Shown: one piece after another, positions 20,072 to 44,510 of the stretch
How the letters are laid out: every line of letters starts with the position of its first letter
Numbering within the stretch: the stretch's first letter is position 1
DNA from: Candidatus Heimdallarchaeum aukensis
GTDB taxonomy: Archaea; Asgardarchaeota; Heimdallarchaeia; Heimdallarchaeales; Heimdallarchaeaceae
Length of the DNA stretch: 64,000 bases
Assembly (NCBI GenBank): GCA_021513695.1
Contig: CP084166.1
Location: 3,008,001-3,072,000 of the forward strand
Reading direction: 5' to 3'
Program-made: the position numbers and the translations under genes
The notes under the pieces: generated by a model
Database searches by the model: none
What the model saw: the letters and a program-made list of their open reading frames with translations, nothing else
What the model was told of the DNA's origin: nothing

Positions 20072-20950
20072 ATGTCCGAAACAAATATACCTCGAATTGT
20101 TCTGGGTTCTGTATTGTATCCCTATTTTGAGCGCATCCCACAGGATCACATACTAAGAAACAAAGAAGAACTTGTTAAGTTGGTTGAGCGGTGTTATCAT
20201 GCAGGAGCAAAAGCGTTTTTATTTTATCTTTATAACAAAGAAATTGTTGAAATAGCAAACAGTATTACTGAAAGTATTCCTGATATTTTGTCAATGTTTC
20301 TCATAAAGTTTGACAACATGGATTACATATTAAACCTTCTTAAAGAACTCAAGAAAAAGCCCTATATTCTATTTTTGTCTTCTGAAATAAGTGATCAGAG
20401 AGACTCAGAACTTATACAACGGTTTAGGAAAGCTTTGAGCAAACATGCTGAACATATAGGCATATATTCAAGAGAGCCAATAGGCACAGTTTCCCAGTTA
20501 ATTACAAGTAATGGGGATATTGAGCATTTTCTAATACCTTTTAATTTGTTAGGTTATGGTGTCCAAAATAGAGCTTTACTTGAGATGATTGTTAACTCTT
20601 CTGAAAATATTTACTATAGCTCTAATCCCGTAGCTGATGGTAAACTAAAAGTAAGGCAGGCTTTAGAATATATTTCGAATCATAATGTCAGAGGAATTTT
20701 AGTAGAATTAGAAGACGAAGAAGACATGTTAGAAACAATAAAGTACGGGAGATATTTCTTAGAAACAAAAGATTTCTTACAAATAACGCTTGAATTTGAA
20801 GATATTACAGATGTATGTGAGTATTGTGGAATAGGAATGGAAAGATATTATCCACCAAGCAAGAGTGGAGGAAGTTACTTCTACTGTCCTTCATGTGGAC
20901 ATACAAAACAAATAACAGAAGTAACATACCAAGAGGAAACAGAAAAATAA
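20072..20950 (+). CDS. Hypothetical protein with a C-terminal CxxC...CxxC zinc ribbon
   Basis: C-terminal CEYCG...CPSCGH. The rest is unassigned. Confidence 0.4.
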   Translation: MSETNIPRIVLGSVLYPYFERIPQDHILRNKEELVKLVERCYHAGAKAFLFYLYNKEIVEIANSITESIPDILSMFLIKFDNMDYILNLLKELKKKPYILFLSSEISDQRDSELIQRFRKALSKHAEHIGIYSREPIGTVSQLITSNGDIEHFLIPFNLLGYGVQNRALLEMIVNSSENIYYSSNPVADGKLKVRQALEYISNHNVRGILVELEDEEDMLETIKYGRYFLETKDFLQITLEFEDITDVCEYCGIGMERYYPPSKSGGSYFYCPSCGHTKQITEVTYQEETEK

Positions 20951-21192: not shown

Positions 21193-21792
21193 GTGTTGAT
21201 ACGTATGGCTAGATGTAAATATTGTAACAAAATAATTCCCGATGAAGCTGAATTTTGTCCTTACTGCGGAAAAAAGAAGCCTATAAGAAAAATTGTGGGT
21301 GAAATCGAAGACATAACAAAAAAAGTTAGAGAAAAAATCGAAAAAAGAATTCCCACTATAAGGAAACAAGCTTTAGAAATACTAGACAGATTGTCATCTA
21401 AAGCAAAACAAGCTTCTCTTCCAGATTTTGTGGATAGAACAAAGGTTATCTCAATTCTTAATGATTTGAAAGCTAAATTAGATACTGAAACTGATCAATC
21501 CAAGATACAAGAATACTCTGAATGGGCTAATTTGATTGAGCAGACGATTAGTGGAGAAAATTGTATAATTTGTTATCAACCATTTGATATTCATAAAGAT
21601 GGTCATTTAGACGTCTCTCTCTGCCCTTCATGTCATTATGCCGCTCACGTTAATCATTTTGAAGCTTGGTTAGACAAAAAAGCTGTATGTCCAATATGTA
21701 AGGCTTCAATATCTAAAAATCAACTAGTTCGAGGGTATATTCAACATAAAGAAGGTGAAATTGTTTTTACTTCTTCAGAAAAACAATTTTAA
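21193..21792 (+). CDS. Zinc-ribbon plus RING-like (RING-H2/PHD-like) zinc finger protein
   Basis: N-terminal CKYCNK...CPYCG. C-terminal CIICYQ-x16-CPSCHYAAHVNH-x13-CPICK gives 8 Cys/His ligands in a cross-brace-like spacing. Confidence 0.5.
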   Translation: MLIRMARCKYCNKIIPDEAEFCPYCGKKKPIRKIVGEIEDITKKVREKIEKRIPTIRKQALEILDRLSSKAKQASLPDFVDRTKVISILNDLKAKLDTETDQSKIQEYSEWANLIEQTISGENCIICYQPFDIHKDGHLDVSLCPSCHYAAHVNHFEAWLDKKAVCPICKASISKNQLVRGYIQHKEGEIVFTSSEKQF

Positions 21793-21815: not shown

Positions 21816-22421
21816 ATGATAGTTAATAAATCTGAACTTGCAAGGATTTTAGTTTCAAATAATATCCTCAAATTTGGCTCTTTTACATTAAAATCTGGGG
21901 CAAAAAGCTGGTTCTATGTTGATTTAAGACTCATTCCTTCCATTCCTGAAGTATTCAACTATGTTATTGAATCATATATTAAAAAAATAAATGAATTAGA
22001 CACAGTAGATGCTGTTGCAGGAATAGCTGTTGCAGGAATACCTTTTTCCTCTGTTATAGGTTATAAACTTAATTTGCCTTCTTTAATAGTAAGAAAACAA
22101 TCAAAAGATTATGGATTACAGAAAATGGTCGAAGGGAGAGCTAAAGAGAAAGCAATTATTTTACTTATTGATGATGTAATTACCACTGGAGGAAGTAAAA
22201 CCCCTGCTATTCTCGCTCTTCGAGAAAATAACTATGTGGTAAAGGATCTTTTAGTACTTATAGATAGAAGTGAAGGAAAAGCAGAAGAATTAAAGAAACA
22301 AGGGGTTACAGTCCATTCTGTAGCTAAGATAGAAGAAATTTTTGAAGAATGCTTGAATTTATCTGATGAAGACATATCTCCAAATATTAAAGAAATAATA
22401 AGAAATAATTTCAAAAACTAA
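21816..22421 (+). CDS. pyrE: Orotate phosphoribosyltransferase
   Basis: LKFGSFTLKSGAKSWFYVD and the PRPP-binding motif LLIDDVITTGGS. Confidence 0.85.
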   Translation: MIVNKSELARILVSNNILKFGSFTLKSGAKSWFYVDLRLIPSIPEVFNYVIESYIKKINELDTVDAVAGIAVAGIPFSSVIGYKLNLPSLIVRKQSKDYGLQKMVEGRAKEKAIILLIDDVITTGGSKTPAILALRENNYVVKDLLVLIDRSEGKAEELKKQGVTVHSVAKIEEIFEECLNLSDEDISPNIKEIIRNNFKN

Positions 22422-23221
22422 AATCTCACTCTTCTTCTTACTACTTCTTTCTGTTTTTCATTGAACATTTTTTGATACTTTTCAGCTTCTTTTTTAGGAT
22501 CTGAAGAATAAATAATTGCTCTACCTACATTAACCATAGTCTTAGCTCCAAAGTGGAAAAAGAGAGAATCAGCACTTCCACCTTGTGCTCCTACTCCAGG
22601 AACTAAAGCAATACATCTGTCACCTACCTTTTTTCTAATTAAAGCTACATCCTCTTTTGATACATGACCTGTAGCTCCAATCACACAACCATCAGAAGAA
22701 GCTTCTTTGATCTGATTGGCAATATAAAGATAAAGAGGATTGTTATCAATTGTTGCTTTTTTCTGGTATTCTGCTTCAGGATTAGACATAAGTGTAAGTA
22801 CAATTATTCCTAATCCATGTTTATGGGCTGTCTTTGTTGCTTCTTTTGTGTTTCCAGCAAAAGGAGAAAAAGTAAAAGCATCAAATCCCTCTTCTTTAAA
22901 CCAGTAAATAGCAGAATCATTAGTTGAACCTATATCTCCAAGTTTATGATCAATAATAGAAAGCATACCTAAAGAGTGAATAAGTTTGTTTATTTCTTTA
23001 ACCTCATCAATTGTCAATCCAATGATATATTGTCTATTAATTTTTATTACACTTGTATGTTTTTCTACTGCTTTGATTGTGTCTATCATAAACTCTAGTT
23101 TTGTCATCCCTTTAGGAATAGTATTTTTTTCTCTTTGATTTGGTATTGCAGGATCTAAGCCTACACACAAATAGCTTTTCTTGATTTTAGAATGTTCCAG
23201 ATACTTATCTACAAAATTCAT
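22418..23221 (-). CDS. pyrF: Orotidine 5'-phosphate decarboxylase (long type 2 form)
   Basis: YLCVGLDP N-terminal motif, ~267 aa with a TIM-barrel pattern. Confidence 0.8.
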   Translation of the reverse strand: MNFVDKYLEHSKIKKSYLCVGLDPAIPNQREKNTIPKGMTKLEFMIDTIKAVEKHTSVIKINRQYIIGLTIDEVKEINKLIHSLGMLSIIDHKLGDIGSTNDSAIYWFKEEGFDAFTFSPFAGNTKEATKTAHKHGLGIIVLTLMSNPEAEYQKKATIDNNPLYLYIANQIKEASSDGCVIGATGHVSKEDVALIRKKVGDRCIALVPGVGAQGGSADSLFFHFGAKTMVNVGRAIIYSSDPKKEAEKYQKMFNEKQKEVVRRRVRF

Positions 23222-23234
23222 TCTTTTATTCCTC

Positions 23235-24428
23235 TTATCTCTTCAACATTATCTTTCCATCTTTTATAACGTATTTGATGTTAGCATATAGTGGAAGATT
23301 TTCGAAAGCTGACCATTTAACTTTTGATTTTACCCAGTCTTTATCGATAAAAATGGCTTCTTTAAGGTCAGCAATAATTATATTTCCATCTTCTATACTC
23401 GCATTGTTTATATTAAGTAATTTAGAAGGAAAACTATGATATGCTTCTATTCCTCTATCCCACGTAATTTCTCCTCTTTTTACTAAACTGAAAACAGAAG
23501 GTAATAGCTCTTGCACTCCAGGCATACCACTTAACCTTTTTTCTTTCTTTTCTTCTATGGTGTGAGGAGAGTGATCAGAGCTTATCATCTCAATTTCACC
23601 AGTAGAAAAGGCATCTTTTATTTCTATTCTATCTCCTTCTAACCTCAGCGGAGGATTGACTTTCTTTTTCCATTCTTCAATTTCACTCTTTTCATCAAAA
23701 AAAATGTAACGAGGACAAGTGTCAACTGTTAGATTGTTTCTTTTTGTTACTCTAAGCACACGGAGGGCAAGATAGGATGAAAGGTGAGTAACGTGAAATT
23801 TTAGTTTTGGGTAAATAGAAGCCCAGATACTTATTTGTCTCACAGCTTCTCCTTCTGCTTCTGGAGGACGTTGTTCAAGATGACTTTTCTTGTTTTTGTT
23901 TTCATTTAGAATATCCGGGTCTTCAGCATGAAAAATAATCGGTTTGTCTGTTTCTATGTCTTCAAGAATTGAAAGAGCTTTTTCTATATTTTCTTTAGTT
24001 ATTGAAAGGTTTCCAAAAGATTCAGACATAAAAACTTTGTAAGCATCACATACTTCATCTATTTCTCTTAACTGGTTAATATTTGAGTTAGTTATTGCAG
24101 AGGCAACAAGTATATCGATTTGGCTTTTTTTCGCTAGTTCTTTCTTTAGAATGATATTCTTCACTGAATCAGTAATAGGATTAGTATTAGGCATGTCTAA
24201 GACTTTAACTACTCCACCATTTAGTGCAGCAATTGACCCTGAAACGAAGTCCTCTTTATGTTCATAACCTGGTTGACGAAAATGAACATGAATATCAATT
24301 CCTACGGGTAGACCAATTAATCGTGTTCCATCAATCTTTATATCTTCTTTAGATTCAATTTCTAAATCTTGAATGTAGAAATCTTTTGTTAAATTGTCCC
24401 AACTTTCTATATTTTCTATTTTTATCAA
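23235..24428 (-). CDS. pyrC: Dihydroorotase
   Basis: Amidohydrolase motifs GIDIHVHFRQPG... Confidence 0.8.
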   Translation of the reverse strand: MIKIENIESWDNLTKDFYIQDLEIESKEDIKIDGTRLIGLPVGIDIHVHFRQPGYEHKEDFVSGSIAALNGGVVKVLDMPNTNPITDSVKNIILKKELAKKSQIDILVASAITNSNINQLREIDEVCDAYKVFMSESFGNLSITKENIEKALSILEDIETDKPIIFHAEDPDILNENKNKKSHLEQRPPEAEGEAVRQISIWASIYPKLKFHVTHLSSYLALRVLRVTKRNNLTVDTCPRYIFFDEKSEIEEWKKKVNPPLRLEGDRIEIKDAFSTGEIEMISSDHSPHTIEEKKEKRLSGMPGVQELLPSVFSLVKRGEITWDRGIEAYHSFPSKLLNINNASIEDGNIIIADLKEAIFIDKDWVKSKVKWSAFENLPLYANIKYVIKDGKIMLKR

Positions 24429-25283
24429 TCAAATCTCCTCTTTTTTTCCACTTGGTAAACGAGAATAATTACCAAAATCATCCATTTTTTCTAATTGCTC
24501 TCTAGAAAAAACAGGACCGTCGACGCAGATTCTTAGTCCTTCTGGATCTACAACACAAGCACCACAAAGACCAAAGCCACAACGCATGTGTCTATCAGCT
24601 AAACTCATTTGTATGTCAATAATATGGTTATAATTTTTACAGATATCAAACAATATTTTCATCATTTTTTCTGGTCCTGCAGAATATATAACAACACTTT
24701 TCTCATTATCTTTATTTAAATACTCCTTTACCCCTTCAGTAGGAAAACCTTTTTTTCCATAACTTCCATCATCAGTAAATGGGAAAAAATCTATTTTTTT
24801 CTCTTTTTTCCATTTTTCTAGAAGTTCAACATAAAGCAGTTTTTCTTTTGTTCTTGCTCCTTCAAAAACAAAGATTTCATCTTGTTCAGTTCTTCCTTTA
24901 ATTATCTCTTCTATTAAGTACTTAAGAGGGGGCATGCCGTACCCTCCCCCAACAATAATATGTGTGATTGATTTTTTAATCCGGAAAGCTTTTCCAAAAA
25001 ATCCTCTTATCCCTACAAGATCTCCTTGTTCAAGTTCAAACAATGCTTTTGTTCCTTCTCCAACTTTGGCAACGCAAAGTTCTAGTATCTGGTCCTTAAT
25101 CCCTGCGACACCTATTGGAAATTCATCTATTCCAGGAACCCATAACATAACAAATTGTCCGGGTTTAGGTTTTTTTGGTGTAAAAGGAAGTTTAATAGAA
25201 AATGTTCGTGTATCTTCGTTTTCTTCCATTATTTTAATAATTTTACACATCTCTGGTTTAGAGTTGTGAAAATACTTAGTCAT
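24429..25283 (-). CDS. pyrK: Dihydroorotate dehydrogenase electron-transfer subunit
   Basis: FAD/NAD-binding ferredoxin-reductase-like fold with a C-terminal 2Fe-2S Cys cluster (CGFGLCGACVV). Confidence 0.85.
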   Translation of the reverse strand: MTKYFHNSKPEMCKIIKIMEENEDTRTFSIKLPFTPKKPKPGQFVMLWVPGIDEFPIGVAGIKDQILELCVAKVGEGTKALFELEQGDLVGIRGFFGKAFRIKKSITHIIVGGGYGMPPLKYLIEEIIKGRTEQDEIFVFEGARTKEKLLYVELLEKWKKEKKIDFFPFTDDGSYGKKGFPTEGVKEYLNKDNEKSVVIYSAGPEKMMKILFDICKNYNHIIDIQMSLADRHMRCGFGLCGACVVDPEGLRICVDGPVFSREQLEKMDDFGNYSRLPSGKKEEI

Positions 25284-26208
25284 TATGGGCTCCTCCTATT
25301 AATTCAGAAATAGACTCTACCTTTTGTTCATGCATGTATTTCTTTATTTGTTGGATAAATAAGTTAGTTTTATTCTCTGGATATTTTATTCCTATAGCTG
25401 TTCCAACTTCCACTGCAGATGCTCCAGCGAGTAAATATTCTATGACATCATATCCTGAATTTATTCCCCCCACACCTACAATGGGGATAGTTTCTCCAAA
25501 ACGTTCGAATAAGTCATAAACAAACCTAATCCCAATTGGTTTAATCGCTGCTCCAGATAACCCTCCTCTCTTAAAACCCAAAATAGGTTTTTTTGAATAT
25601 ATATCAATAATCATGGCTTTTAAAGTGTTGATTGCTACTAAAGCCGAAGCACCTCCTTTTATTGCAGCTTCTGCAATTTCAAAAATATCTGTGATGTTGG
25701 GAGTAAGTTTAACCCAAATTGGTTTAGAAGTTCTTTTTTGCATTTCTTTTGTAATTTCATAAACAAGTTGGGGGTCTGTTCCTACTGCTAGTCCTTCTTT
25801 TTCAGTATTGGGACAAGAAAGATTTAACTCGAAACAAAGAAAAGGTAAATCATCTAACCCTTCTAATACTTCACTAAATTCATCAATATTACCACCAAAT
25901 ATAGAAACAATGGTAGGGACCTCTTTTTCGATGAGAATCTTTAATTCTTCTCTGTATAGTTTGTAACCAGGGTTAGCTAGTCCAACAGAGTTAATTGCAC
26001 TCTTGATCTCATGTAGAAAAAAAACACTAGGATTAGGGTTTCCTTTTCTCTCATCAATTCCAATACTTTTTGTTATAACTGCTCCAAAACCTGAATTGTA
26101 AATTCTGTTTAGTGAAGAATAGGAAGAACCTAGAACTCCTGAAGCTAGAATCAAAGGGTTACGTAGTGTTATTTTTCCTATTTTTGTTTCAAGGTTCATC
26201 AAAAACAT
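25276..26208 (-). CDS. pyrD: Dihydroorotate dehydrogenase catalytic subunit (class 1B)
   Basis: Typical DHODH motifs (LRNPLILASG, NLSCPN, GGI). Overlaps pyrK by 8 nt. Confidence 0.9.
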   Translation of the reverse strand: MFLMNLETKIGKITLRNPLILASGVLGSSYSSLNRIYNSGFGAVITKSIGIDERKGNPNPSVFFLHEIKSAINSVGLANPGYKLYREELKILIEKEVPTIVSIFGGNIDEFSEVLEGLDDLPFLCFELNLSCPNTEKEGLAVGTDPQLVYEITKEMQKRTSKPIWVKLTPNITDIFEIAEAAIKGGASALVAINTLKAMIIDIYSKKPILGFKRGGLSGAAIKPIGIRFVYDLFERFGETIPIVGVGGINSGYDVIEYLLAGASAVEVGTAIGIKYPENKTNLFIQQIKKYMHEQKVESISELIGGAHND

Positions 26209-32992: not shown

Positions 32993-33122
32993 ATAATATA
33001 ATCCTCTTTTTTTTTATTTTCTTTTTTTTGAAGTTTTTAAAGAATAATCAAATTAAGTTAGCACAAATAACAGCAAAGTTAAATATGACTACCTTTGAGA
33101 ATAAAGTAAGATTGGTGAGATT

Positions 33123-34079
33123 ATGTCTGAGGATGAACAAAAAACTCAAGTTGAAGAAGAGAAAACTGAGGTAAAAGAAGAAAAAGAAGAAACTCCCTTG
33201 GAAATGTACCAAAAAGCTGGAAAAGTAGCTCACGAAATTCTTCAAACACTTAAAGATATGGCTAAACCCGGAGTTAAAGCTCTAGATTTAAGTGAAAAAG
33301 CAGATGCAATGATAGCTGAAGCAGGAATGAAACCTGCATTTCCTCTAAATATAGCAATAAACAATCATGCTGCTCATTACACTTGTCCTTGGGAAGATGA
33401 TTTGATTCTTCAAGAGGGAGATGTAGTAAAAATTGATGTTGGTGTTCATTATAAAGGTTTTATTGCAGATACAGCTTTAACTGTTGCTTTTGATGATGTC
33501 CATAATGATTTAATTAAAGCAAGTAAAGAAGCAACTGAAACAGCCGTAAAAGTTATACGTGTAGGAAATTATACTGGTAAATTAGGAGATCTAATTGAAA
33601 ATATTATTGAAGGATACGGCTTCTCAACAGTAAAAGACTTGTCAGGCCATTTGCTTATGCCTTATCTTGTTCATGGTCCAAAAACTATTCCAAATGTAAG
33701 TGGAAGAAAAGGTAACTTGATTTTACAAGATGAAGCTTATGCTATTGAAACCTTCGCAACAACAGGTGCAGGAGAATCAAAACCAGATAAAACAAAGTTA
33801 TATATTGTAAGGTTAGCAGAAGGAAGATTTCCACTAAGAACAAGAGCTGCAAAAGATGTTAGAAATCTTCTAGATAGAGAATATCATAGAATGCCTGTAG
33901 CAACAAGATGGATATATAAGGCCCTTGGTCCTGCTAAGGCAAAAATGGGTATTAGAGAATTAATTAATGTGGGAGCTTTATATCAATATCATGTGCTTTC
34001 TGATACTTCTGGATCTTTTGTATCACAGCATGAGCATACAGTTTACATGACAGAAGAAGGGCCAGTACAAACTACATAA
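33123..34079 (+). CDS. map: Methionine aminopeptidase type 2 with an acidic/Lys-rich N-terminal extension (copy 1)
   Basis: Pita-bread fold motifs (HAAHYTCP, DVGVHYKGFIADTA, SGHLL, IETFATTGAG). N-terminal MSEDEQKTQVEEEKTEVKEEKEE extension. Confidence 0.9.
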   Translation: MSEDEQKTQVEEEKTEVKEEKEETPLEMYQKAGKVAHEILQTLKDMAKPGVKALDLSEKADAMIAEAGMKPAFPLNIAINNHAAHYTCPWEDDLILQEGDVVKIDVGVHYKGFIADTALTVAFDDVHNDLIKASKEATETAVKVIRVGNYTGKLGDLIENIIEGYGFSTVKDLSGHLLMPYLVHGPKTIPNVSGRKGNLILQDEAYAIETFATTGAGESKPDKTKLYIVRLAEGRFPLRTRAAKDVRNLLDREYHRMPVATRWIYKALGPAKAKMGIRELINVGALYQYHVLSDTSGSFVSQHEHTVYMTEEGPVQTT

Positions 34080-34209
34080 TCCTTTTTTTATTTTACTGTT
34101 TATTTTTTGTTTTGAGAATAGTAATTTTGTATTTTCATTTAAAAAAATCATTTTTTAAGAACAATAAATCTTTAATATTGAAAAGTTGTAAATGAATGTG
34201 TTGATATAA

Positions 34210-35432
34210 TTGACTTTACAGACAAGTGAATTCAAATTTATAATGTATGAACCATGTTTTAATAATTACGATATTGTGTATAACGAATATATGCTGGCTT
34301 ATGAAGAATTTAAGAAACTAGGAGAAGAGATGTCAATTTTCGCGTTCTCTCTTACTTCTATGAAGGAATGCTCTATCTTATTAATGGTGACAAATTCTTT
34401 TCTCAGAAGGAATACAAAAAAGCAAATGAAAACTATGAAGAAGCACAAAAATTAATTACTCGCTCTAGAGCATCAAGAGGAATTGAAAAAGATACTATCT
34501 GGCAAGAAATGGTTAAATGGATAGCATATTGCGAATCTTATACTAATCTTTCCAAGAGTTATTTAGTCAAAGATTTCTCAGAAAAAATTGAACTATTAAA
34601 GAAAAGCAAGGCAGCAATTAAAGATTTTGTAGAAAAAAGGAAATATGATGAAAACATCATCTTGGATATCTATGCAAAAGCTAAAGAAAATTATATCAAG
34701 TACATTTATTACATAAATTTAGCTCAAAAATATGAGAAAAACACAAGAATGCAGAAAAAAATACTCCTTAAAGCGAGAAGAAAGCTACTTTTAGCTCACT
34801 TTATTCTTAATCACTATGAAGAAGAAATAGATGATTTAGACTTTAAAATTGATGAGCTAACAAAGACACACATAGTTGAAAGAGCAGAAATGTACTGGAA
34901 CAAGGGAACTTTACTAATTTCTCAAAGTGACTTTATGAGTGCACACAAATATCTTCTTCTAGCTTCTCAGTACTATGAACGAGCAAGCAAAATATGTTCA
35001 GAATTTATTGAATTAAGATTATATTTAGCTCTTAGTAAAATAACAGAAAGTAGCGGTCTTGAAGCAAAAGCTAATGAACTTTACAGAAGGCAGGACAAGC
35101 CCCTAGAAGCCAGTAAACTGTTTGAAGAAGCATATGAAGTTGTAGACGAATCCCTCGGTTTACTAGCTACAATTCACAATGAAGTGTTAATAAACAATAT
35201 GACTGCACAAAGATCTTATTATGAAGCTTTAGCACTCGAAGCAAAAGGTATATCCCTCTTTGACGAAGAGAAATATAAAGAATCTATAGAAATTTTTGAA
35301 CAATCAATGCAAAAATTAGAAGAAACAGAACGCTTAGTAGTCGAAGGTAGTTCAGAGCATTTACAAGAGTACATTCGCTTAGCTAAGAATGAGATTGAAG
35401 GTTATTTATCTATGGCAAAAACTATGCTTTAG
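34210..35432 (+). pseudogene. Frameshifted copy of the 407-aa alpha-helical (TPR-like) protein gene. It is split into 81-aa and 354-aa ORFs by a 1-nt deletion near 34330
   Basis: Copy 2 (39065-40288) reads ggagaagagaatgtc. Copy 1 reads ggagaagagatgtc, which shifts the frame. Confidence 0.55.
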
Positions 35433-35490
35433 TATCAAATTTTTCTTCAATCAATAATCTTTATTTATCACAATATAAACAATAAATGCA

Positions 35491-36186
35491 ATGCTGTTTG
35501 ACGATTTTGAAATAAAGGAGTACTTGGAAAATTTTTTCTCAAAGAATCTATCTGCCAAAGATTATCCTGAACCCGACACTGATCTCGATCATAAATTAGT
35601 TTGGAATTACAGTGAAAATGGAGATGCTTTTTCAGTACTTCTTGATCCAATAAATGATGCTTACGAATACTTTGGAGTTACTGTAGGTGAGATATTTGCT
35701 CACCATCGATTCAAACCAATTGTTTGGCACTTGTATCTTTTTGGCAATAAAATAAAGAGCTTTGAATGGATTAAATTAAAAGATGGAACTGATTATCTTA
35801 TTAATGTTGGGACTTACTCTTTTATTTCTTATATCTACGATTTTAAAAGTGGGAAAAGGTTATACAGAAACCCAATAGAAGAGATAAAATCTCAAATATA
35901 TTCACTTAACCTCAAGTATGATATATCTGTAAATGATGTAAATGAATTTGTAGAATATTCTTTTATTGAAGACTACAGGTGGGGAGAAGTTTCGAGAAAC
36001 GCTATAATAGCTCTTATACTAGATAATTTCAATAAAGATAAAATAAATGTTAATGTTCTAGGATTAATTAATCGTGTTTTACACGAATATTCTAATTACG
36101 AATCAGACAAACAACTACTAGAAAGAGTGAAAAAAGGAGAATCACCTTTTGAACTAGGGACTATCTTTTATAACGATTTTATATAA
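35491..36186 (+). CDS. Hypothetical protein (231 aa), copy 1
   Basis: An ORF identical to 40347-41042. Confidence 0.45.
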   Translation: MLFDDFEIKEYLENFFSKNLSAKDYPEPDTDLDHKLVWNYSENGDAFSVLLDPINDAYEYFGVTVGEIFAHHRFKPIVWHLYLFGNKIKSFEWIKLKDGTDYLINVGTYSFISYIYDFKSGKRLYRNPIEEIKSQIYSLNLKYDISVNDVNEFVEYSFIEDYRWGEVSRNAIIALILDNFNKDKINVNVLGLINRVLHEYSNYESDKQLLERVKKGESPFELGTIFYNDFI

Positions 36187-36199
36187 AAAGAGAAAAAAT

Positions 36200-36499
36200 T
36201 TAACTCATTTTAAATTCTACACCGAATCCTCCATGAGGATAGTGCCAATCAACACTTCCGTGAGGACAAACAAGCCTACATGTTCCACATTCAACACAAG
36301 GTGCATAATCAAACGTTACAGGTACATCTCCATCTTCAACTAGTTTATAACATTCTGCAGGGCAACCATATACACAGTCATATGTCTTACATTTAGTTTT
36401 GCATATCTCCTCGTTTATGGTAATGTGAGCAAAATTTTTGTCTGTAACATACTTTGTTAATGCAAGTTTTTCTTCAATTTTTATTGGATTTTCTACCAT
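36200..36499 (-). CDS. fixX: Ferredoxin-like protein FixX (copy 1)
   Basis: CVECGTCRLVCPHGSV 4Fe-4S-like motif, ~99 aa, immediately downstream of fixC. Confidence 0.8.
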   Translation of the reverse strand: MVENPIKIEEKLALTKYVTDKNFAHITINEEICKTKCKTYDCVYGCPAECYKLVEDGDVPVTFDYAPCVECGTCRLVCPHGSVDWHYPHGGFGVEFKMS

Positions 36500-36511
36500 T
36501 CTTTTCTCCTC

Positions 36512-37825
36512 CTAAATAGATCTTAAAGCAGCAAAAGCATCTCCCATGAGCTTAAACAGCTTACCTTTCTTTAGGAAGTGCTTAATAGCTGTAGGAACAA
36601 TTCTTTTTCTAGGCTCTCCAGTGTTGTGTAAAAGTTGATACATCAAAGAATTAAGCAGTTCTGGATAAACATTGAAAATTCTCTCTCTCTCCAAGAACTT
36701 TGCAGCTCGTTTAAATCTCTTCAAATCTTGCAAAACAAAACTATCTCGCAATAATTTCAAATAAATCTTTGTTCCTTCTGCAGAATAATCATTTGTTGTT
36801 AAAGCTTCTTTTGCTGCTAACCCTGCTAGTCTTCCAGACTCTAAAGCAAAATTCATACCTTCTATGTACAAACCTGCGTTAAGAACCATACCAGCAGCAT
36901 CACCAGCAATCATCACACCGTTCCCATATAACTTAGGCATGTGTTTGTATCCCCCTTCAGGAATAGCGTGAGCAGAGTATTCAACCATTTTAGCATCTTT
37001 AAGGAGCTTTTGGATGTAGGGGTGTTTCTTAAAATCTTCAAAAGCATCAATCGCTCTGATCTTTTTTTGTATAAGTTTTTTCATGTTTAAGATCAATCCA
37101 AAAGAAAGTGTTTCTTTATTTGTATAGAAGAATCCTCCTCCTGGAATTCCATGAGTATAACCTAGAAACTCGTTACTTATTCCTTCATTTCCATTAAGAT
37201 GAAATCTCTCTTCAATTATTTCTTTCTTTAATTCATATGTTTCTTTCATTCCTACAGCGTAGTGTGAAGGTGAAGGCTTTTTAGCAAGTTTAGCTTTTTC
37301 TGCTAATAAAGTAACAGCTCCTTCAGCAATTATAGTGAGTTTAGCTTTTAATTCATCTTCTCCAGATTCTATTCCTATAATTTGATTATCCTTCCAAATG
37401 AAATCTTCAGCTACAGTGTTGTCGAGAATAAAAGCTCCTGCTTCTTCTGCTTTTTGGGCCAACCATCTGTCAAATTTTGGACGAATAACAGTTACACCAT
37501 TGTAAGGTGGTTCGGCAAAATCTTGTAAATCAATATCAATAGTCATTGCTCGCTTTTCAGACAAAAGAGTAATCTTTTTAGTTGTTAAATATCTCTCAAT
37601 AGCATCTTCTTCCCAATAGTTAGGAACGATTTTATTTAGTACTGGGCCGTAAAGAGCTCCTCCACTTACATTTTTTGCACCAGGATACTGTCCTCTTTCA
37701 ATAATAGCAACCTCTTTTCCTTCCTTTGCTAAAGTTAATGCTGCAGAAGAACCAGCTAGTCCAGCTCCAACTATAATTACATCAAAATCGTATTCTACAG
37801 TCATAAAAAAATGTTTGATTTTCAA
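36512..37825 (-). CDS. fixC: FAD-dependent oxidoreductase FixC (ETF-quinone oxidoreductase-like), copy 1
   Basis: DVIIVGAGLAGSSAAL Rossmann motif; ~437 aa, FixC-like. Confidence 0.85.
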   Translation of the reverse strand: MKIKHFFMTVEYDFDVIIVGAGLAGSSAALTLAKEGKEVAIIERGQYPGAKNVSGGALYGPVLNKIVPNYWEEDAIERYLTTKKITLLSEKRAMTIDIDLQDFAEPPYNGVTVIRPKFDRWLAQKAEEAGAFILDNTVAEDFIWKDNQIIGIESGEDELKAKLTIIAEGAVTLLAEKAKLAKKPSPSHYAVGMKETYELKKEIIEERFHLNGNEGISNEFLGYTHGIPGGGFFYTNKETLSFGLILNMKKLIQKKIRAIDAFEDFKKHPYIQKLLKDAKMVEYSAHAIPEGGYKHMPKLYGNGVMIAGDAAGMVLNAGLYIEGMNFALESGRLAGLAAKEALTTNDYSAEGTKIYLKLLRDSFVLQDLKRFKRAAKFLERERIFNVYPELLNSLMYQLLHNTGEPRKRIVPTAIKHFLKKGKLFKLMGDAFAALRSI

Positions 37826-37977
37826 TATAAAATGTTTATGTGAAAATATAAAAAAGAAAATAGAAAAGAATGAAAAATTATTTTATCTTTTTTAAAGAAT
37901 AATCAAATTAAGTTAGCACAAATAACAGCAAAGTTAAATATGACTACCTTTGAGAATAAAGTAAGATTGGTGAGATT

Positions 37978-38934
37978 ATGTCTGAGGATGAACAAAAAAC
38001 TCAAGTTGAAGAAGAGAAAACTGAGGTAAAAGAAGAAAAAGAAGAAACTCCCTTGGAAATGTACCAAAAAGCTGGAAAAGTAGCTCACGAAATTCTTCAA
38101 ACACTTAAAGATATGGCTAAACCCGGAGTTAAAGCTCTAGATTTAAGTGAAAAAGCAGATGCAATGATAGCTGAAGCAGGAATGAAACCTGCATTTCCTC
38201 TAAATATAGCAATAAACAATCATGCTGCTCATTACACTTGTCCTTGGGAAGATGATTTGATTCTTCAAGAGGGAGATGTAGTAAAAATTGATGTTGGTGT
38301 TCATTATAAAGGTTTTATTGCAGATACAGCTTTAACTGTTGCTTTTGATGATGTCCATAATGATTTAATTAAAGCAAGTAAAGAAGCAACTGAAACAGCC
38401 GTAAAAGTTATACGTGTAGGAAATTATACTGGTAAATTAGGAGATCTAATTGAAAATATTATTGAAGGATACGGCTTCTCAACAGTAAAAGACTTGTCAG
38501 GCCATTTGCTTATGCCTTATCTTGTTCATGGTCCAAAAACTATTCCAAATGTAAGTGGAAGAAAAGGTAACTTGATTTTACAAGATGAAGCTTATGCTAT
38601 TGAAACCTTCGCAACAACAGGTGCAGGAGAATCAAAACCAGATAAAACAAAGTTATATATTGTAAGGTTAGCAGAAGGAAGATTTCCACTAAGAACAAGA
38701 GCTGCAAAAGATGTTAGAAATCTTCTAGATAGAGAATATCATAGAATGCCTGTAGCAACAAGATGGATATATAAGGCCCTTGGTCCTGCTAAGGCAAAAA
38801 TGGGTATTAGAGAATTAATTAATGTGGGAGCTTTATATCAATATCATGTGCTTTCTGATACTTCTGGATCTTTTGTATCACAGCATGAGCATACAGTTTA
38901 CATGACAGAAGAAGGGCCAGTACAAACTACATAA
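37978..38934 (+). CDS. map: Methionine aminopeptidase type 2 (copy 2)
   Basis: Identical to 33123-34079. Confidence 0.9.
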   Translation: MSEDEQKTQVEEEKTEVKEEKEETPLEMYQKAGKVAHEILQTLKDMAKPGVKALDLSEKADAMIAEAGMKPAFPLNIAINNHAAHYTCPWEDDLILQEGDVVKIDVGVHYKGFIADTALTVAFDDVHNDLIKASKEATETAVKVIRVGNYTGKLGDLIENIIEGYGFSTVKDLSGHLLMPYLVHGPKTIPNVSGRKGNLILQDEAYAIETFATTGAGESKPDKTKLYIVRLAEGRFPLRTRAAKDVRNLLDREYHRMPVATRWIYKALGPAKAKMGIRELINVGALYQYHVLSDTSGSFVSQHEHTVYMTEEGPVQTT

Positions 38935-39064
38935 TCCTTTTTTTATTTTACTGTTTATTTTTTGTTTTGAGAATAGTAATTTTGTATTTTCATTTAAAAA
39001 AATCATTTTTTAAGAACAATAAATCTTTAATATTGAAAAGTTGTAAATGAATGTGTTGATATAA

Positions 39065-40288
39065 TTGACTTTACAGACAAGTGAATTCAAATTTATAATG
39101 TATGAACCATGTTTTAATAATTACGATATTGTGTATAACGAATATATGCTGGCTTATGAAGAATTTAAGAAACTAGGAGAAGAGAATGTCAATTTTCGCG
39201 TTCTCTCTTACTTCTATGAAGGAATGCTCTATCTTATTAATGGTGACAAATTCTTTTCTCAGAAGGAATACAAAAAAGCAAATGAAAACTATGAAGAAGC
39301 ACAAAAATTAATTACTCGCTCTAGAGCATCAAGAGGAATTGAAAAAGATACTATCTGGCAAGAAATGGTTAAATGGATAGCATATTGCGAATCTTATACT
39401 AATCTTTCCAAGAGTTATTTAGTCAAAGATTTCTCAGAAAAAATTGAACTATTAAAGAAAAGCAAGGCAGCAATTAAAGATTTTGTAGAAAAAAGGAAAT
39501 ATGATGAAAACATCATCTTGGATATCTATGCAAAAGCTAAAGAAAATTATATCAAGTACATTTATTACATAAATTTAGCTCAAAAATATGAGAAAAACAC
39601 AAGAATGCAGAAAAAAATACTCCTTAAAGCGAGAAGAAAGCTACTTTTAGCTCACTTTATTCTTAATCACTATGAAGAAGAAATAGATGATTTAGACTTT
39701 AAAATTGATGAGCTAACAAAGACACACATAGTTGAAAGAGCAGAAATGTACTGGAACAAGGGAACTTTACTAATTTCTCAAAGTGACTTTATGAGTGCAC
39801 ACAAATATCTTCTTCTAGCTTCTCAGTACTATGAACGAGCAAGCAAAATATGTTCAGAATTTATTGAATTAAGATTATATTTAGCTCTTAGTAAAATAAC
39901 AGAAAGTAGCGGTCTTGAAGCAAAAGCTAATGAACTTTACAGAAGGCAGGACAAGCCCCTAGAAGCCAGTAAACTGTTTGAAGAAGCATATGAAGTTGTA
40001 GACGAATCCCTCGGTTTACTAGCTACAATTCACAATGAAGTGTTAATAAACAATATGACTGCACAAAGATCTTATTATGAAGCTTTAGCACTCGAAGCAA
40101 AAGGTATATCCCTCTTTGACGAAGAGAAATATAAAGAATCTATAGAAATTTTTGAACAATCAATGCAAAAATTAGAAGAAACAGAACGCTTAGTAGTCGA
40201 AGGTAGTTCAGAGCATTTACAAGAGTACATTCGCTTAGCTAAGAATGAGATTGAAGGTTATTTATCTATGGCAAAAACTATGCTTTAG
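39065..40288 (+). CDS. Alpha-helical repeat (TPR-like) protein, 407 aa, intact copy
   Basis: Uninterrupted ORF; all-helical and Lys/Glu-rich. No family recognised. Confidence 0.5.
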   Translation: MTLQTSEFKFIMYEPCFNNYDIVYNEYMLAYEEFKKLGEENVNFRVLSYFYEGMLYLINGDKFFSQKEYKKANENYEEAQKLITRSRASRGIEKDTIWQEMVKWIAYCESYTNLSKSYLVKDFSEKIELLKKSKAAIKDFVEKRKYDENIILDIYAKAKENYIKYIYYINLAQKYEKNTRMQKKILLKARRKLLLAHFILNHYEEEIDDLDFKIDELTKTHIVERAEMYWNKGTLLISQSDFMSAHKYLLLASQYYERASKICSEFIELRLYLALSKITESSGLEAKANELYRRQDKPLEASKLFEEAYEVVDESLGLLATIHNEVLINNMTAQRSYYEALALEAKGISLFDEEKYKESIEIFEQSMQKLEETERLVVEGSSEHLQEYIRLAKNEIEGYLSMAKTML

Positions 40289-40346
40289 TATCAAATTTTT
40301 CTTCAATCAATAATCTTTATTTATCACAATATAAACAATAAATGCA

Positions 40347-41042
40347 ATGCTGTTTGACGATTTTGAAATAAAGGAGTACTTGGAAAATTTTTTCTCAAAG
40401 AATCTATCTGCCAAAGATTATCCTGAACCCGACACTGATCTCGATCATAAATTAGTTTGGAATTACAGTGAAAATGGAGATGCTTTTTCAGTACTTCTTG
40501 ATCCAATAAATGATGCTTACGAATACTTTGGAGTTACTGTAGGTGAGATATTTGCTCACCATCGATTCAAACCAATTGTTTGGCACTTGTATCTTTTTGG
40601 CAATAAAATAAAGAGCTTTGAATGGATTAAATTAAAAGATGGAACTGATTATCTTATTAATGTTGGGACTTACTCTTTTATTTCTTATATCTACGATTTT
40701 AAAAGTGGGAAAAGGTTATACAGAAACCCAATAGAAGAGATAAAATCTCAAATATATTCACTTAACCTCAAGTATGATATATCTGTAAATGATGTAAATG
40801 AATTTGTAGAATATTCTTTTATTGAAGACTACAGGTGGGGAGAAGTTTCGAGAAACGCTATAATAGCTCTTATACTAGATAATTTCAATAAAGATAAAAT
40901 AAATGTTAATGTTCTAGGATTAATTAATCGTGTTTTACACGAATATTCTAATTACGAATCAGACAAACAACTACTAGAAAGAGTGAAAAAAGGAGAATCA
41001 CCTTTTGAACTAGGGACTATCTTTTATAACGATTTTATATAA
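40347..41042 (+). CDS. Hypothetical protein (231 aa), copy 2
   Basis: Identical to copy 1. Confidence 0.45.
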   Translation: MLFDDFEIKEYLENFFSKNLSAKDYPEPDTDLDHKLVWNYSENGDAFSVLLDPINDAYEYFGVTVGEIFAHHRFKPIVWHLYLFGNKIKSFEWIKLKDGTDYLINVGTYSFISYIYDFKSGKRLYRNPIEEIKSQIYSLNLKYDISVNDVNEFVEYSFIEDYRWGEVSRNAIIALILDNFNKDKINVNVLGLINRVLHEYSNYESDKQLLERVKKGESPFELGTIFYNDFI

Positions 41043-41055
41043 AAAGAGAAAAAAT

Positions 41056-41355
41056 TTAACTCATTTTAAATTCTACACCGAATCCTCCATGAGGATAGTG
41101 CCAATCAACACTTCCGTGAGGACAAACAAGCCTACATGTTCCACATTCAACACAAGGTGCATAATCAAACGTTACAGGTACATCTCCATCTTCAACTAGT
41201 TTATAACATTCTGCAGGGCAACCATATACACAGTCATATGTCTTACATTTAGTTTTGCATATCTCCTCGTTTATGGTAATGTGAGCAAAATTTTTGTCTG
41301 TAACATACTTTGTTAATGCAAGTTTTTCTTCAATTTTTATTGGATTTTCTACCAT
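41056..41355 (-). CDS. fixX: Ferredoxin-like protein FixX (copy 2)
   Basis: Identical to copy 1. Adjacent to fixC and fixB. Confidence 0.8.
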   Translation of the reverse strand: MVENPIKIEEKLALTKYVTDKNFAHITINEEICKTKCKTYDCVYGCPAECYKLVEDGDVPVTFDYAPCVECGTCRLVCPHGSVDWHYPHGGFGVEFKMS

Positions 41356-41367
41356 TCTTTTCTCCTC

Positions 41368-42681
41368 CTAAATAGATCTTAAAGCAGCAAAAGCATCTCC
41401 CATGAGCTTAAACAGCTTACCTTTCTTTAGGAAGTGCTTAATAGCTGTAGGAACAATTCTTTTTCTAGGCTCTCCAGTGTTGTGTAAAAGTTGATACATC
41501 AAAGAATTAAGCAGTTCTGGATAAACATTGAAAATTCTCTCTCTCTCCAAGAACTTTGCAGCTCGTTTAAATCTCTTCAAATCTTGCAAAACAAAACTAT
41601 CTCGCAATAATTTCAAATAAATCTTTGTTCCTTCTGCAGAATAATCATTTGTTGTTAAAGCTTCTTTTGCTGCTAACCCTGCTAGTCTTCCAGACTCTAA
41701 AGCAAAATTCATACCTTCTATGTACAAACCTGCGTTAAGAACCATACCAGCAGCATCACCAGCAATCATCACACCGTTCCCATATAACTTAGGCATGTGT
41801 TTGTATCCCCCTTCAGGAATAGCGTGAGCAGAGTATTCAACCATTTTAGCATCTTTAAGGAGCTTTTGGATGTAGGGGTGTTTCTTAAAATCTTCAAAAG
41901 CATCAATCGCTCTGATCTTTTTTTGTATAAGTTTTTTCATGTTTAAGATCAATCCAAAAGAAAGTGTTTCTTTATTTGTATAGAAGAATCCTCCTCCTGG
42001 AATTCCATGAGTATAACCTAGAAACTCGTTACTTATTCCTTCATTTCCATTAAGATGAAATCTCTCTTCAATTATTTCTTTCTTTAATTCATATGTTTCT
42101 TTCATTCCTACAGCGTAGTGTGAAGGTGAAGGCTTTTTAGCAAGTTTAGCTTTTTCTGCTAATAAAGTAACAGCTCCTTCAGCAATTATAGTGAGTTTAG
42201 CTTTTAATTCATCTTCTCCAGATTCTATTCCTATAATTTGATTATCCTTCCAAATGAAATCTTCAGCTACAGTGTTGTCGAGAATAAAAGCTCCTGCTTC
42301 TTCTGCTTTTTGGGCCAACCATCTGTCAAATTTTGGACGAATAACAGTTACACCATTGTAAGGTGGTTCGGCAAAATCTTGTAAATCAATATCAATAGTC
42401 ATTGCTCGCTTTTCAGACAAAAGAGTAATCTTTTTAGTTGTTAAATATCTCTCAATAGCATCTTCTTCCCAATAGTTAGGAACGATTTTATTTAGTACTG
42501 GGCCGTAAAGAGCTCCTCCACTTACATTTTTTGCACCAGGATACTGTCCTCTTTCAATAATAGCAACCTCTTTTCCTTCCTTTGCTAAAGTTAATGCTGC
42601 AGAAGAACCAGCTAGTCCAGCTCCAACTATAATTACATCAAAATCGTATTCTACAGTCATAAAAAAATGTTTGATTTTCAA
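41368..42681 (-). CDS. fixC: FAD-dependent oxidoreductase FixC (copy 2)
   Basis: Identical to copy 1. Directly downstream of fixB. Confidence 0.85.
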   Translation of the reverse strand: MKIKHFFMTVEYDFDVIIVGAGLAGSSAALTLAKEGKEVAIIERGQYPGAKNVSGGALYGPVLNKIVPNYWEEDAIERYLTTKKITLLSEKRAMTIDIDLQDFAEPPYNGVTVIRPKFDRWLAQKAEEAGAFILDNTVAEDFIWKDNQIIGIESGEDELKAKLTIIAEGAVTLLAEKAKLAKKPSPSHYAVGMKETYELKKEIIEERFHLNGNEGISNEFLGYTHGIPGGGFFYTNKETLSFGLILNMKKLIQKKIRAIDAFEDFKKHPYIQKLLKDAKMVEYSAHAIPEGGYKHMPKLYGNGVMIAGDAAGMVLNAGLYIEGMNFALESGRLAGLAAKEALTTNDYSAEGTKIYLKLLRDSFVLQDLKRFKRAAKFLERERIFNVYPELLNSLMYQLLHNTGEPRKRIVPTAIKHFLKKGKLFKLMGDAFAALRSI

Positions 42682-42733
42682 TATAAAATGTTTATGTGAA
42701 AATATAAAAAAGAAAATAGAAAAGAATGAAAAA

Positions 42734-43708
42734 TTATTTTATCTTTTCTTTTAAAATAGGAAGAATTTGATGAAGATCTCCAACTATTCCATAATCACAA
42801 TATTTGAATATAGAAGCTCTTTCGTCAGTGTTTATTGCTATCAAGGTCTTGGCTTTAACTCCACAGATATGTTGAGGTGCACCACTAATTCCTGCGGCAA
42901 TATACAAATCAGGGGAAACTGACTGACCAGTTTGGCCTATTTCATAAGTTTCTTCTATCCAATGTAGATCTGTGCAGGCTCTTGTTGCACCCATTTCTCC
43001 TCCAAGCAAGTCAGCTAGTTCTTTAATAATAGCGAATTTGTCTTTTCCACCTACACCCCTTCCTCCAGCAACAATTATCTTTGCATCTTTAAGATTAACT
43101 GTCTTCTTCGCTTTAAGAATCTCTACACTTTTAACAATTCTATCTTTTTCATCGAATGAAACAGTTAATTTTTCTATTTCTGGTTCTTGTCCTTCTGGAT
43201 TCTCATCTATAAAGAAAGCTCCTGCACGAGTTGTGATGAATATTTTTTCTCCTTTAGATTTCATTTTTACCATAGCTTGGTCGTCTCTAACTGGAGTAAT
43301 AGCTATAAGATCATCACCCTCTAAAATCAAGTCAGTTACTCTTTCAAGACAAGTAGTGTTATAATGAACAGCTAATCTGGGAATGAGGTCTTCTACATTA
43401 ACTAGTCCTCCACCAATAACTACTTTAGGGTCAGCAGTTTTGATAATCTCTAACATAGCTTTTACATAAGCTCGAGAAAGGTAAGTGCTCAATTCAGGAG
43501 CTTCTACTACAAAGACTTTTTTAGCTCCGTGCTTACCTAAAGTGGAAATCCATTCATCTTTAGCTTGTTCACAGAGGAGAGCAGCAGAAACATCTCCTAA
43601 ACTAGTAAAGTTTTTGACTTTATTTAGAACTCCTAAAACGTTTTCTTCTATTTCTCCATCTCTGATTAAAGCAAAAACAAGTATTCCAGTCATTTTATGC
43701 ACCCCCAA
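42734..43708 (-). CDS. fixB: Electron transfer flavoprotein alpha subunit (FixB/EtfA)
   Basis: ETF alpha FAD-binding C-terminal domain motifs (IIVAGGRGV, YIAAGISGAPQH). Confidence 0.85.
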   Translation of the reverse strand: MGVHKMTGILVFALIRDGEIEENVLGVLNKVKNFTSLGDVSAALLCEQAKDEWISTLGKHGAKKVFVVEAPELSTYLSRAYVKAMLEIIKTADPKVVIGGGLVNVEDLIPRLAVHYNTTCLERVTDLILEGDDLIAITPVRDDQAMVKMKSKGEKIFITTRAGAFFIDENPEGQEPEIEKLTVSFDEKDRIVKSVEILKAKKTVNLKDAKIIVAGGRGVGGKDKFAIIKELADLLGGEMGATRACTDLHWIEETYEIGQTGQSVSPDLYIAAGISGAPQHICGVKAKTLIAINTDERASIFKYCDYGIVGDLHQILPILKEKIK

Positions 43709-44510
43709 GTTTAATACCGTCTTCTTTCATCTTCTCAAGAAGCTTGTCAACCATTTCCTCAGGTTCGCCTTCTGAAATAATGAAGCTTTCTTTCTCAATG
43801 ACAATATTCTCCAATGAAAGAACCTCTAGATCAGAGATGTCTTGTCCTACATCATTAGCAGAAAGACCTAAATCTTCAAGTGTCCATGCAGGTATTTGAG
43901 CTCTTTTCGACATCATAATTCCACGCATTGAGGTATAACGAGGAATAAAATACTCAGAGTCAGAAATACTGAACAAAGACTTACCTAAAGGAACTTGAAC
44001 AATCTCTTTTCCTCCTTCTAGCACTCTAGAAACAATAAAGGCATCATCCTTCTTTTCAAGTTTTTCAACATAAAGAACAGAAGGAATATCTAAAAGCTCT
44101 GCAAGTATAGGCGCTTCAGCGTAGGATGAAGTAGGCATTACTTGTCCACCAATCATAACTAAATCATACTCTCCAATTTTCTCAAGAACTTTATGGTAAA
44201 CTTTAGCCATAATAAGAGGGTCATGACTAAAAATGTCTTTAGAATTGACAACAATTCCAGAGTTACAACCCATGGCTATTGCTTCTCTAACTGCTTTCTC
44301 AGGCTTCAAATCTCCAACACAAACAGCAGTTACAGTTGCTCCTTCACTGTCTTTGAATTTTAAAGCTCCTTCAATGGCGTTCTTGTCAATAGGGTTGATT
44401 ATAAGATCATCAGCATTAATTTTTGATTCATCAAAATAGTCTATTCCCTCAAGATTGACCTGAGGATCAAGAATCTGACGTATAAACACAACGATATTCA
44501 TATTAATCAA
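43695..44510 (-). CDS. fixA: Electron transfer flavoprotein beta subunit (FixA/EtfB)
   Basis: ETF beta fold; overlaps fixB by 14 nt. Confidence 0.85.
   Translation of the reverse strand: MINMNIVVFIRQILDPQVNLEGIDYFDESKINADDLIINPIDKNAIEGALKFKDSEGATVTAVCVGDLKPEKAVREAIAMGCNSGIVVNSKDIFSHDPLIMAKVYHKVLEKIGEYDLVMIGGQVMPTSSYAEAPILAELLDIPSVLYVEKLEKKDDAFIVSRVLEGGKEIVQVPLGKSLFSISDSEYFIPRYTSMRGIMMSKRAQIPAWTLEDLGLSANDVGQDISDLEVLSLENIVIEKESFIISEGEPEEMVDKLLEKMKEDGIKLGGA

Follow-up and report, generated by a model that had tools for sequence, protein, structure and literature searches.

RING-type ubiquitin ligases (E3s) are the largest E3 class in eukaryotes, and the timing and manner of their diversification are part of the question of eukaryogenesis. 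The archaeal family Heimdallarchaeaceae is often placed closest to eukaryotes, and one of its members, the Asgard archaeon Candidatus Heimdallarchaeum aukensis, is the source of the stretch of DNA analyzed here (64,000 nucleotides, positions 3,008,001 to 3,072,000 of contig CP084166.1, assembly GCA_021513695.1; called the window below), in which we have studied a gene for a zinc-ribbon protein with a RING-type zinc domain near its C-terminus, together with the orphan gene directly upstream of it, termed c1. Archaeal RING proteins can act as E3s with their cognate ubiquitin-activating (E1) and ubiquitin-conjugating (E2) enzymes and ubiquitin, as described for the srfp protein of Caldiarchaeum subterraneum and for the RING protein of a Helarchaeial ubiquitin-ESCRT system (PMC5654768; bioRxiv 10.1101/2023.07.25.550441). 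RING E3s of prokaryotes are found in Aigarchaeota and in scattered bacteria as well (PMC5654768, PMC11354881), so that a preliminary description of this locus, in which RING E3-like domains of archaea were held to be essentially restricted to Asgard lineages, was apt for the host and too narrow for the distribution. The characterized archaeal RING E3s are single small proteins inside ubiquitin operons, whereas the family analyzed here has accessory domains, sits outside such operons and is locked to c1.

The C-terminal zinc domain

Taken singly, without its relatives, the window protein gives a suggestive RING assignment. Its best C-terminal match in Pfam is zf-RING_2 (PF13639; 21.9 bits, E = 2.1e-4, profile positions 2–44 of 44), followed at a distance by Prok-RING_1 (PF14446; 13.6 bits vs a cut-off of 29.1, profile positions 4–31 of 54); a scan of NCBIfam gave nothing meaningful, and the weak best matches of a phmmer search of PDB sequences were mostly RING-H2 E3 ligases (AT5G66160 at 7e-4, RNF24 and EL5).

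The relatives of the protein carry the assignment further. From an indexed database of 5.8 billion proteins, a search with the single sequence returned only the protein itself, its H. endolithica orthologue and a 131-amino-acid (aa) metagenome protein (P0003), and the RING-domain alignment, used as the query, gave a single protein. An exhaustive HMMER search over 1.84 billion representative proteins gave 143 matches, about 35 of which have the full architecture in 175–250 aa, with a zinc ribbon, then a helical linker and finally a Cys/His domain at the C-terminus. P0003, which comes from the ENA, joins the first ~50 residues of the family to the C-terminal domain of ribosomal protein S3 and was dropped as a chimera that probably arose in assembly or gene calling. 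The resulting family alignment has 36 members, which are 17–50% identical to the window protein with the exception of one orthologue at 87%. Its invariant columns are C120, C123, C140, C143, H148, H151, C162, P163 and C165, and no others; W155 is kept in at least 90% of the members. The spacing is fixed as C-x2-C-x12-16-C-x2-C-x4-H-x2-H-x10/11-C-x2-C, a C4H2C2 ligand set. Because these eight ligands are invariant in 36 sequences of mostly 17–50% identity, the Cys/His pattern is not due to chance. The preliminary description had likewise counted eight ligands, and eight are real; the string it quoted holds nine candidates, one of which, H144, is not conserved in the family and is no ligand.

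All 36 members match zf-RING_2 at E ≤ 0.01 (best 2.2e-7), and 22 match Prok-RING_1. Among ten sampled relatives, five exceed the zf-RING_2 cut-off (27.4–30.3 bits) and the other five fall slightly under it, while Prok-RING_1 aligns over profile positions 3–33 of 54 only and passes its cut-off in one of the ten. A profile comparison had been proposed in the preliminary description; its outcome is thus a best C-terminal match to zf-RING_2 that is sub-threshold for the window protein and recurs throughout the family. The C-terminal family profile found 58 matches at E ≤ 0.01 among the PDB sequences, nearly all of them RING-type domains and mostly E3s, with EL5 (2.5e-9), RNF4 (3.7e-9), RNF24 (6.4e-9) and Arkadia/RNF165 (~1e-7) at the top and RNF38, listerin, AMFR, HRD1 and Rbx2 among the others.

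When the family is aligned to EL5, RNF24 and Arkadia, C120 and C123 fall on RING ligands 1 and 2, C143 on ligand 3, H148 on ligand 5, H151 on ligand 6, and C162 and C165 on ligands 7 and 8. The position of the canonical ligand 4, a His, is occupied by Tyr, Gly and other residues in the family, and the upstream C140 is invariant instead; the canonical Cys of ligand 6 is replaced by His151 in the window protein. C140 would then stand in for the fourth ligand and His151 for the sixth, giving C4H2C2, with C120, C123, H148 and H151 as the putative first zinc site and C140, C143, C162 and C165 as the second. Eight conserved ligands at a spacing compatible with a cross-brace are thus present, in identities other than the canonical C3H2C3. 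The spacing had been called RING-H2/PHD-like, and both halves of this label apply to different parts of the domain: ligands 3–5 are spaced as in PHD fingers and prokaryotic RINGs, and RING-H2 character is seen in the helix Trp and in the motif CPxC[RK].

A full-length AlphaFold model built from a two-sequence alignment was poor (predicted local distance difference test, pLDDT, 62.6) and was kept out of the fold searches. In contrast, residues 97–195 modeled from a 35-sequence alignment reached a pLDDT of 84, with values above 90 through most of the core, and a predicted template modeling score of 0.73. This model has short strands at 135–139 and 145–148, a helix at 149–158 that bears H151 and W155, and a hairpin at 175–190. 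Each of the top 50 Foldseek matches in the PDB was a RING domain, a U-box domain or a RING-like zinc module from an IFT-A protein; among them were TRIM37, Rad18 (1.9 Å over 59 residues), TRAF6 (1.5 Å over 58 residues), Prp19, LubX, RNF12 and RNF38; the RING and U-box neighbors superimpose at root-mean-square deviations of 1.3–2 Å across ~58 residues. The model has the beta-beta-alpha fold of RING and U-box domains, and the fold together with the ligand register points to interleaved zinc sites. The assignment of the C-terminal domain as a RING-type binuclear zinc finger is near-certain.

Predicted E2 contacts and the ubiquitin machinery

RING E3s bind and activate the ubiquitin-charged E2 via a hydrophobic residue two positions after the first Cys ligand, a helix Trp, a Pro after the seventh ligand and an Arg or Lys "linchpin" after the eighth. 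In the RING E3 of Caldiarchaeum, the exchanges I30Q, W58A and R69A abolish or impair ubiquitylation (PMC5654768). The equivalent positions of the family hold Ile or Val in 36 of 36 members, Trp in 34 (Tyr in the other two), Pro in all 36, and Arg or Lys in 34; in the window protein the predicted contact residues are I122, W155, P163 and K166. This conservation is the strongest argument, drawn from sequence, for a working E3 over a mere zinc scaffold.

A tblastn search of the 64-kb window with three queries (human ubiquitin, UbcH5b and E. coli MoeB) detected no gene for ubiquitin, E1 or E2; this search is of limited sensitivity and agrees with what the preliminary description had stated for the window. 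The same queries, with the same limited sensitivity, found none at 24 related loci of up to 20 kb. Because of these results, the family is not regarded as part of a ubiquitin operon. The 24 loci come from a scan of one genome per prokaryotic species, queried with the 10 closest family members, and they represent the close clade of the family, which has the C-terminal hairpin. Within the 25 loci that include the window, c1 lies adjacent to the RING gene, upstream and co-directional, in 24, and the 25th is cut at a contig end. Heimdallarchaeota AB_125 carries both c1 (HeimAB125_12320) and the RING gene (locus L012), and ubiquitin (HeimAB125_14240) is reported for its genome along with four E2-like proteins, of which two have catalytic cysteines (PMC9192718; PMC5654768). 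At least one host of the family thus encodes cognate partners in trans. Neither the genome paper on Heimdallarchaeum (PMC8813620) nor the study of Eme et al. 2023 (PMC10307638) contains a statement in its text on the E1, E2 or RING content of Heimdallarchaeum.

The protein is probably an E3 ligase that works with an E2 whose gene lies elsewhere in the genome, and c1 would be its partner, adaptor or substrate. In the proposed mechanism, this E2, charged with ubiquitin, would dock on the surface formed by I122, W155, P163 and the linchpin K166 and would there be activated for ubiquitin transfer. The N-terminal zinc ribbon, the helical linker and the C-terminal hairpin might provide for recognition of a substrate or partner, the likeliest candidate for which would be the product of the co-operonic orphan c1.

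It should be noted that several points weigh against this proposal. E2 binding and ubiquitin transfer are predictions from sequence and model, and tblastn detected no ubiquitin, E1, E2 or JAB gene, either inside the window or up to ~10 kb away at the 24 loci. The zf-RING_2 score of the window protein lies under the gathering cut-off of 27.3 bits, and the ligand pattern is C4H2C2 rather than C3H2C3. The interleaved pairing of the ligands follows from fold and register, not from measured geometry, and a bias of AlphaFold in favor of the common RING fold is possible. The role of c1 is deduced from synteny alone, part of which could reflect inheritance within one archaeal family.

It has to be considered that the RING fold could instead be a non-catalytic, zinc-stabilized interaction or scaffold module in a complex with the product of c1, which is a zinc-ribbon protein too, in a process unrelated to ubiquitin. 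Such a role would be in accordance with the lack of ubiquitin-system genes by tblastn in all 25 neighborhoods, with the invariable adjacency of c1 and with the metabolic nature of the other neighbors (radical SAM, ETF/FixCX and pyrimidine synthesis genes). Eukaryotes have non-catalytic RING-like domains, and several of the fold and profile matches are the RING/U-box modules of IFT-A, GATOR2 and spliceosomal proteins. However, a pure scaffold would not need three E2-binding and activation positions that are kept in 34–36 of 36 members despite deep divergence, and at least one genome that bears the family has ubiquitin and catalytic E2s. We regard the scaffold role as a possible but distinctly less probable explanation.

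PHD fingers are C4HC3 domains with the spacing C-x2-C-x4-H-x2- across ligands 3–6 and a Trp two residues before ligand 7. The family has the same spacing around ligands 3–6, the gene in the window ends 23 bp before a pyrE-like gene and has pyrF, pyrC, pyrK and pyrD beside it, and N-terminal zinc ribbons are found in transcription factors; one could thus imagine a PHD-like reader or a nucleic-acid-binding zinc-finger regulator, e.g. of the adjacent pyrimidine genes. However, no PHD profile is among the Pfam matches listed for the window protein or the family, ligand 6 is a His, the conserved Trp lies four residues past ligand 6 with CPxC[RK] after it, an arrangement of RING-H2 rather than PHD domains, the fold matches are RING and U-box domains, and the distant family members are not encoded beside pyr genes, all of which makes a PHD-like or DNA-binding role unlikely. 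Two sequential, independent zinc fingers (C120/C123/C140/C143 and H148/H151/C162/C165), LIM-like or as two treble-clef ribbons, are the least likely reading. In their favor, the linear order CxxC...CxxC then HxxH...CxxC can be read as two four-ligand sites, and residues 130–170 have weak Pfam matches to several zinc-ribbon families, but seven of the ligands are in register with those of EL5, RNF24 and Arkadia, and the confident model has the RING beta-beta-alpha topology with neighbors that are nearly all RING or U-box domains. No LIM or double-ribbon structure is among the listed fold matches, and because those of the confident model are RING/U-box domains or RING-like modules, the two independent ribbons that the preliminary description had set against a cross-brace were not recovered.

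The gene, its product and the orphan neighbor c1

The features of the locus are listed in the table.

Table. Position of the RING gene, its domains and its nearest neighbors in the window
Feature	Coordinates	Strand	Basis
Gene for zinc-ribbon and RING-type protein, 195 aa	21205..21792	+	Identity to P0001, N-termini of orthologues
N-terminal single C4 zinc ribbon, residues 4–24 (C4, C7, C18, C21)	21214..21276	+	Pfam
Helical linker, residues ~28–115, three long helices predicted	21286..21549	+	Low-confidence full-length model
RING-type binuclear zinc domain, residues 119–166	21559..21702	+	Homology
C-terminal beta-hairpin extension, residues 175–190, LVRGYIQHKEGEIVFT	21727..21774	+	Model strands, conservation in the close clade
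Orphan c1, 292 aa, alpha/beta-looking	20072..20950	+	Directly upstream of the RING gene, co-directional
C-terminal zinc ribbon of c1, CxxC-x19-CxxC (C249, C252, C272, C275)	20816–20896	+	Sequence
Phosphoribosyltransferase (pyrE-like)	21816..22421	+	23 bp after the RING gene; Pfam

The preliminary description had placed the gene at 21193–21792, where an open reading frame is indeed present on the + strand, with GTG 21193 as its listed start. A deposited 195-aa protein of Candidatus Heimdallarchaeum aukensis (P0001), named just "zinc-ribbon domain-containing protein", is 100% identical from ATG 21205 onward (MARCKYCN...), and the orthologues start at the same Met; the true start is therefore almost certainly this ATG, 12 nt downstream of the GTG. 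In AB_125, no ATG, GTG or TTG precedes the zinc ribbon in the RING open reading frame (L012, 2025–2618), and the frame opens directly behind the stop codon of c1; this suggests that the start is non-canonical or that translation is coupled.

The product is a soluble protein of ~22 kDa. The separate CxxC...CxxC ribbon of the preliminary description was borne out: the N-terminal pattern CxxC-x10-CxxC scores 26.9 bits vs a cut-off of 25 for Pfam Zn_Ribbon_1 (PF13240) and matches DZR at the cut-off of that family. The ribbon is recognized as Zn_Ribbon_1 or DZR in 27–28 of the 36 members (Zn_Ribbon_1 in 27), and its four Cys are aligned in the full-length ones. The linker contains a conserved segment, LPxFV[ND][KR]xK, at residues ~72–81, of which P73, F75 and K80 are kept in the close clade, and we infer that it may serve in dimerization or partner binding. 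The strands of the C-terminal hairpin correspond to residues 79–86 and 89–94 of the model, and L174, G177 and F188 are conserved in the close clade; the hairpin is specific to this Heimdallarchaeaceae clade and is missing from distant family members.

The family is previously undescribed; it is restricted to Heimdall archaea and is found conserved throughout the Heimdallarchaeaceae. The 24 loci of the close clade are mostly labeled Heimdallarchaeota, including AB_125 and H. endolithica, and the remaining labels are one Thorarchaeota metagenome-assembled genome and several unclassified archaea. The named distant members belong to the Heimdallarchaeia as well, among them the Kariarchaeaceae protein MHA2250397.1, which is already called "RING finger domain-containing protein" by NCBI. 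Because of this label, and because Asgard RING E3s are established, the family is not a new kind of system.

The gap between c1 and the RING gene is 0–19 bp in most genomes; in the window it is an AT-rich 254 bp from the c1 stop codon to ATG 21205 (242 bp to GTG 21193). The c1 protein has many invariant polar residues, e.g. in EPIG, PFN..G.G.QNR..EM.VNS and FETHDFLQIALEFED, and by its sequence looks like an enzyme. Searches of Pfam, NCBIfam and PDB sequences with c1, as a single sequence and as a profile, gave no significant match. Its relatives fall into 29 clusters, which are from Heimdallarchaeaceae or Heimdallarchaeota wherever the organism is named. The RING–ArcS–radical SAM context of distant members had raised the possibility of c1 being a divergent protein of the ArcS/DUF5591 or TGT-like kind, which was rejected at an hhalign probability of 0.4%.

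Clustering of the neighbors revealed a co-directional array of the orphan c8, FixC-like, FixX-like and radical SAM (PA0069/Rv2578c type) genes, c1 and the RING gene, followed by a pyrF gene, which in 20 of 25 genomes is oriented convergently to the RING gene. In the window this wider array is broken: the ETF/Fix genes lie 15–23 kb off on the opposite strand and c3 and c8 are absent, while c1 and the RING gene are still together. The pyrimidine cluster occupies 21816–26208 and consists of the pyrE-like gene (+) and then pyrF, dihydroorotase, pyrK and pyrD genes (–). Farther away, the window contains a near-identical tandem duplication at 33100–42700 with a unit of 4855–4856 bp (copies at ~33.1–37.9 kb and ~37.9–42.7 kb), which holds genes for an M24 peptidase, a TPR protein, a 231-aa orphan and FixX-like and FixC-like proteins; genes for ETF alpha and beta follow at 42734–44510 (–). 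An Rfam scan of the window found no RNA family.

The surroundings of distant members are of a different kind. In four of them (L025, 8001–12105; L026, 8001–11323; L028, 8001–15773; L029, 4131–11903), Hsp70 and DnaJ (with or without GrpE) or ClpB genes lie beside the RING gene, and an ArcS-like DUF5591-PUA gene and a radical SAM gene, an archaeosine-type pair, are nearby. The chaperone genes may hint at a link to protein quality control, although with four contexts this could be a coincidence. Directly upstream of the RING gene, L025 (6759–7457) and L027 (7187–7891) have genes for an unannotated protein of ~232 aa; the two share 29% identity, have no relation to c1 and may represent a second, different conserved partner.

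Comparison with known systems

If active, the protein would be an experimentally tractable example of a second, specialized E3 of an Asgard archaeon, with a candidate partner or substrate, c1, known from synteny. A bolder reading, which we consider speculative and rather doubtful at present, is that c1 and the RING gene form a dedicated two-gene module of the Heimdallarchaeaceae, in which a stand-alone RING E3, with its gene away from the ubiquitin operon, is paired with an orphan adaptor or substrate of its own. If true, it would be direct evidence that the substrate-specific diversification of E3s, here with a hybrid domain of prokaryotic C4H and eukaryotic RING-H2 character, had begun in archaeal relatives of eukaryotes. 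Within this bolder reading, the Hsp70/DnaJ/GrpE and ClpB neighbors of distant members would be a hint at a CHIP-like role in protein quality control.

The operon-encoded archaeal RING E3s share with the family an archaeal origin, a predicted cross-brace and conserved equivalents of I30, W58 and R69. The genes of srfp and the Helarchaeial RING E3 lie inside ubiquitin/E1/E2 or ESCRT clusters, whereas the family gene was found in no such cluster in any of 25 + 5 neighborhoods and has c1, radical SAM, ETF/FixCX and pyr genes as neighbors; it is thus not an operon-encoded E3 of the srfp type. By the published description of srfp, the family is further set apart from it by its larger size, extra domains and dedicated orphan neighbor.

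The best sequence and profile matches of the family are to the eukaryotic RING-H2 E3s (zf-RING_2: rice EL5, RNF24, Arkadia/RNF165, RNF38 and the plant ATL/RMR proteins), with which it has in common the predicted beta-beta-alpha cross-brace fold, the hydrophobic residue after the first Cys, the helix Trp, the CPxC motif, the Arg/Lys linchpin and two His among the central ligands. In contrast to these C3H2C3 domains, the family is C4H2C2, its fourth ligand being a Cys three residues upstream of the canonical third Cys and its sixth a His; moreover, it is archaeal, has a zinc ribbon at the N-terminus and a hairpin at the C-terminus, does not reach the Pfam cut-off in the window protein, and has an E3 role that is predicted.

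The domain resembles a PHD finger in its spacing around ligands 3–6 and differs from it in the Trp position, in CPxC[RK] and in its RING/U-box structural neighbors. With Prok-RING_1, the likeness is confined to the front half of the domain, in which C-x2-C...C-P-x-C-x4-H fits profile positions 3–33 in the 22 matching members; only half of the profile aligns, and the back half (H-x3-W...CPxC[RK]) is RING-H2-like. Prokaryotic RINGs have been described as C4HC3 (PMC11354881), from which the C4H2C2 set of the family is one substitution away. This set also shows how a gradual passage is possible between domains of the prokaryotic C4HC3 type and those of the eukaryotic RING-H2 type.
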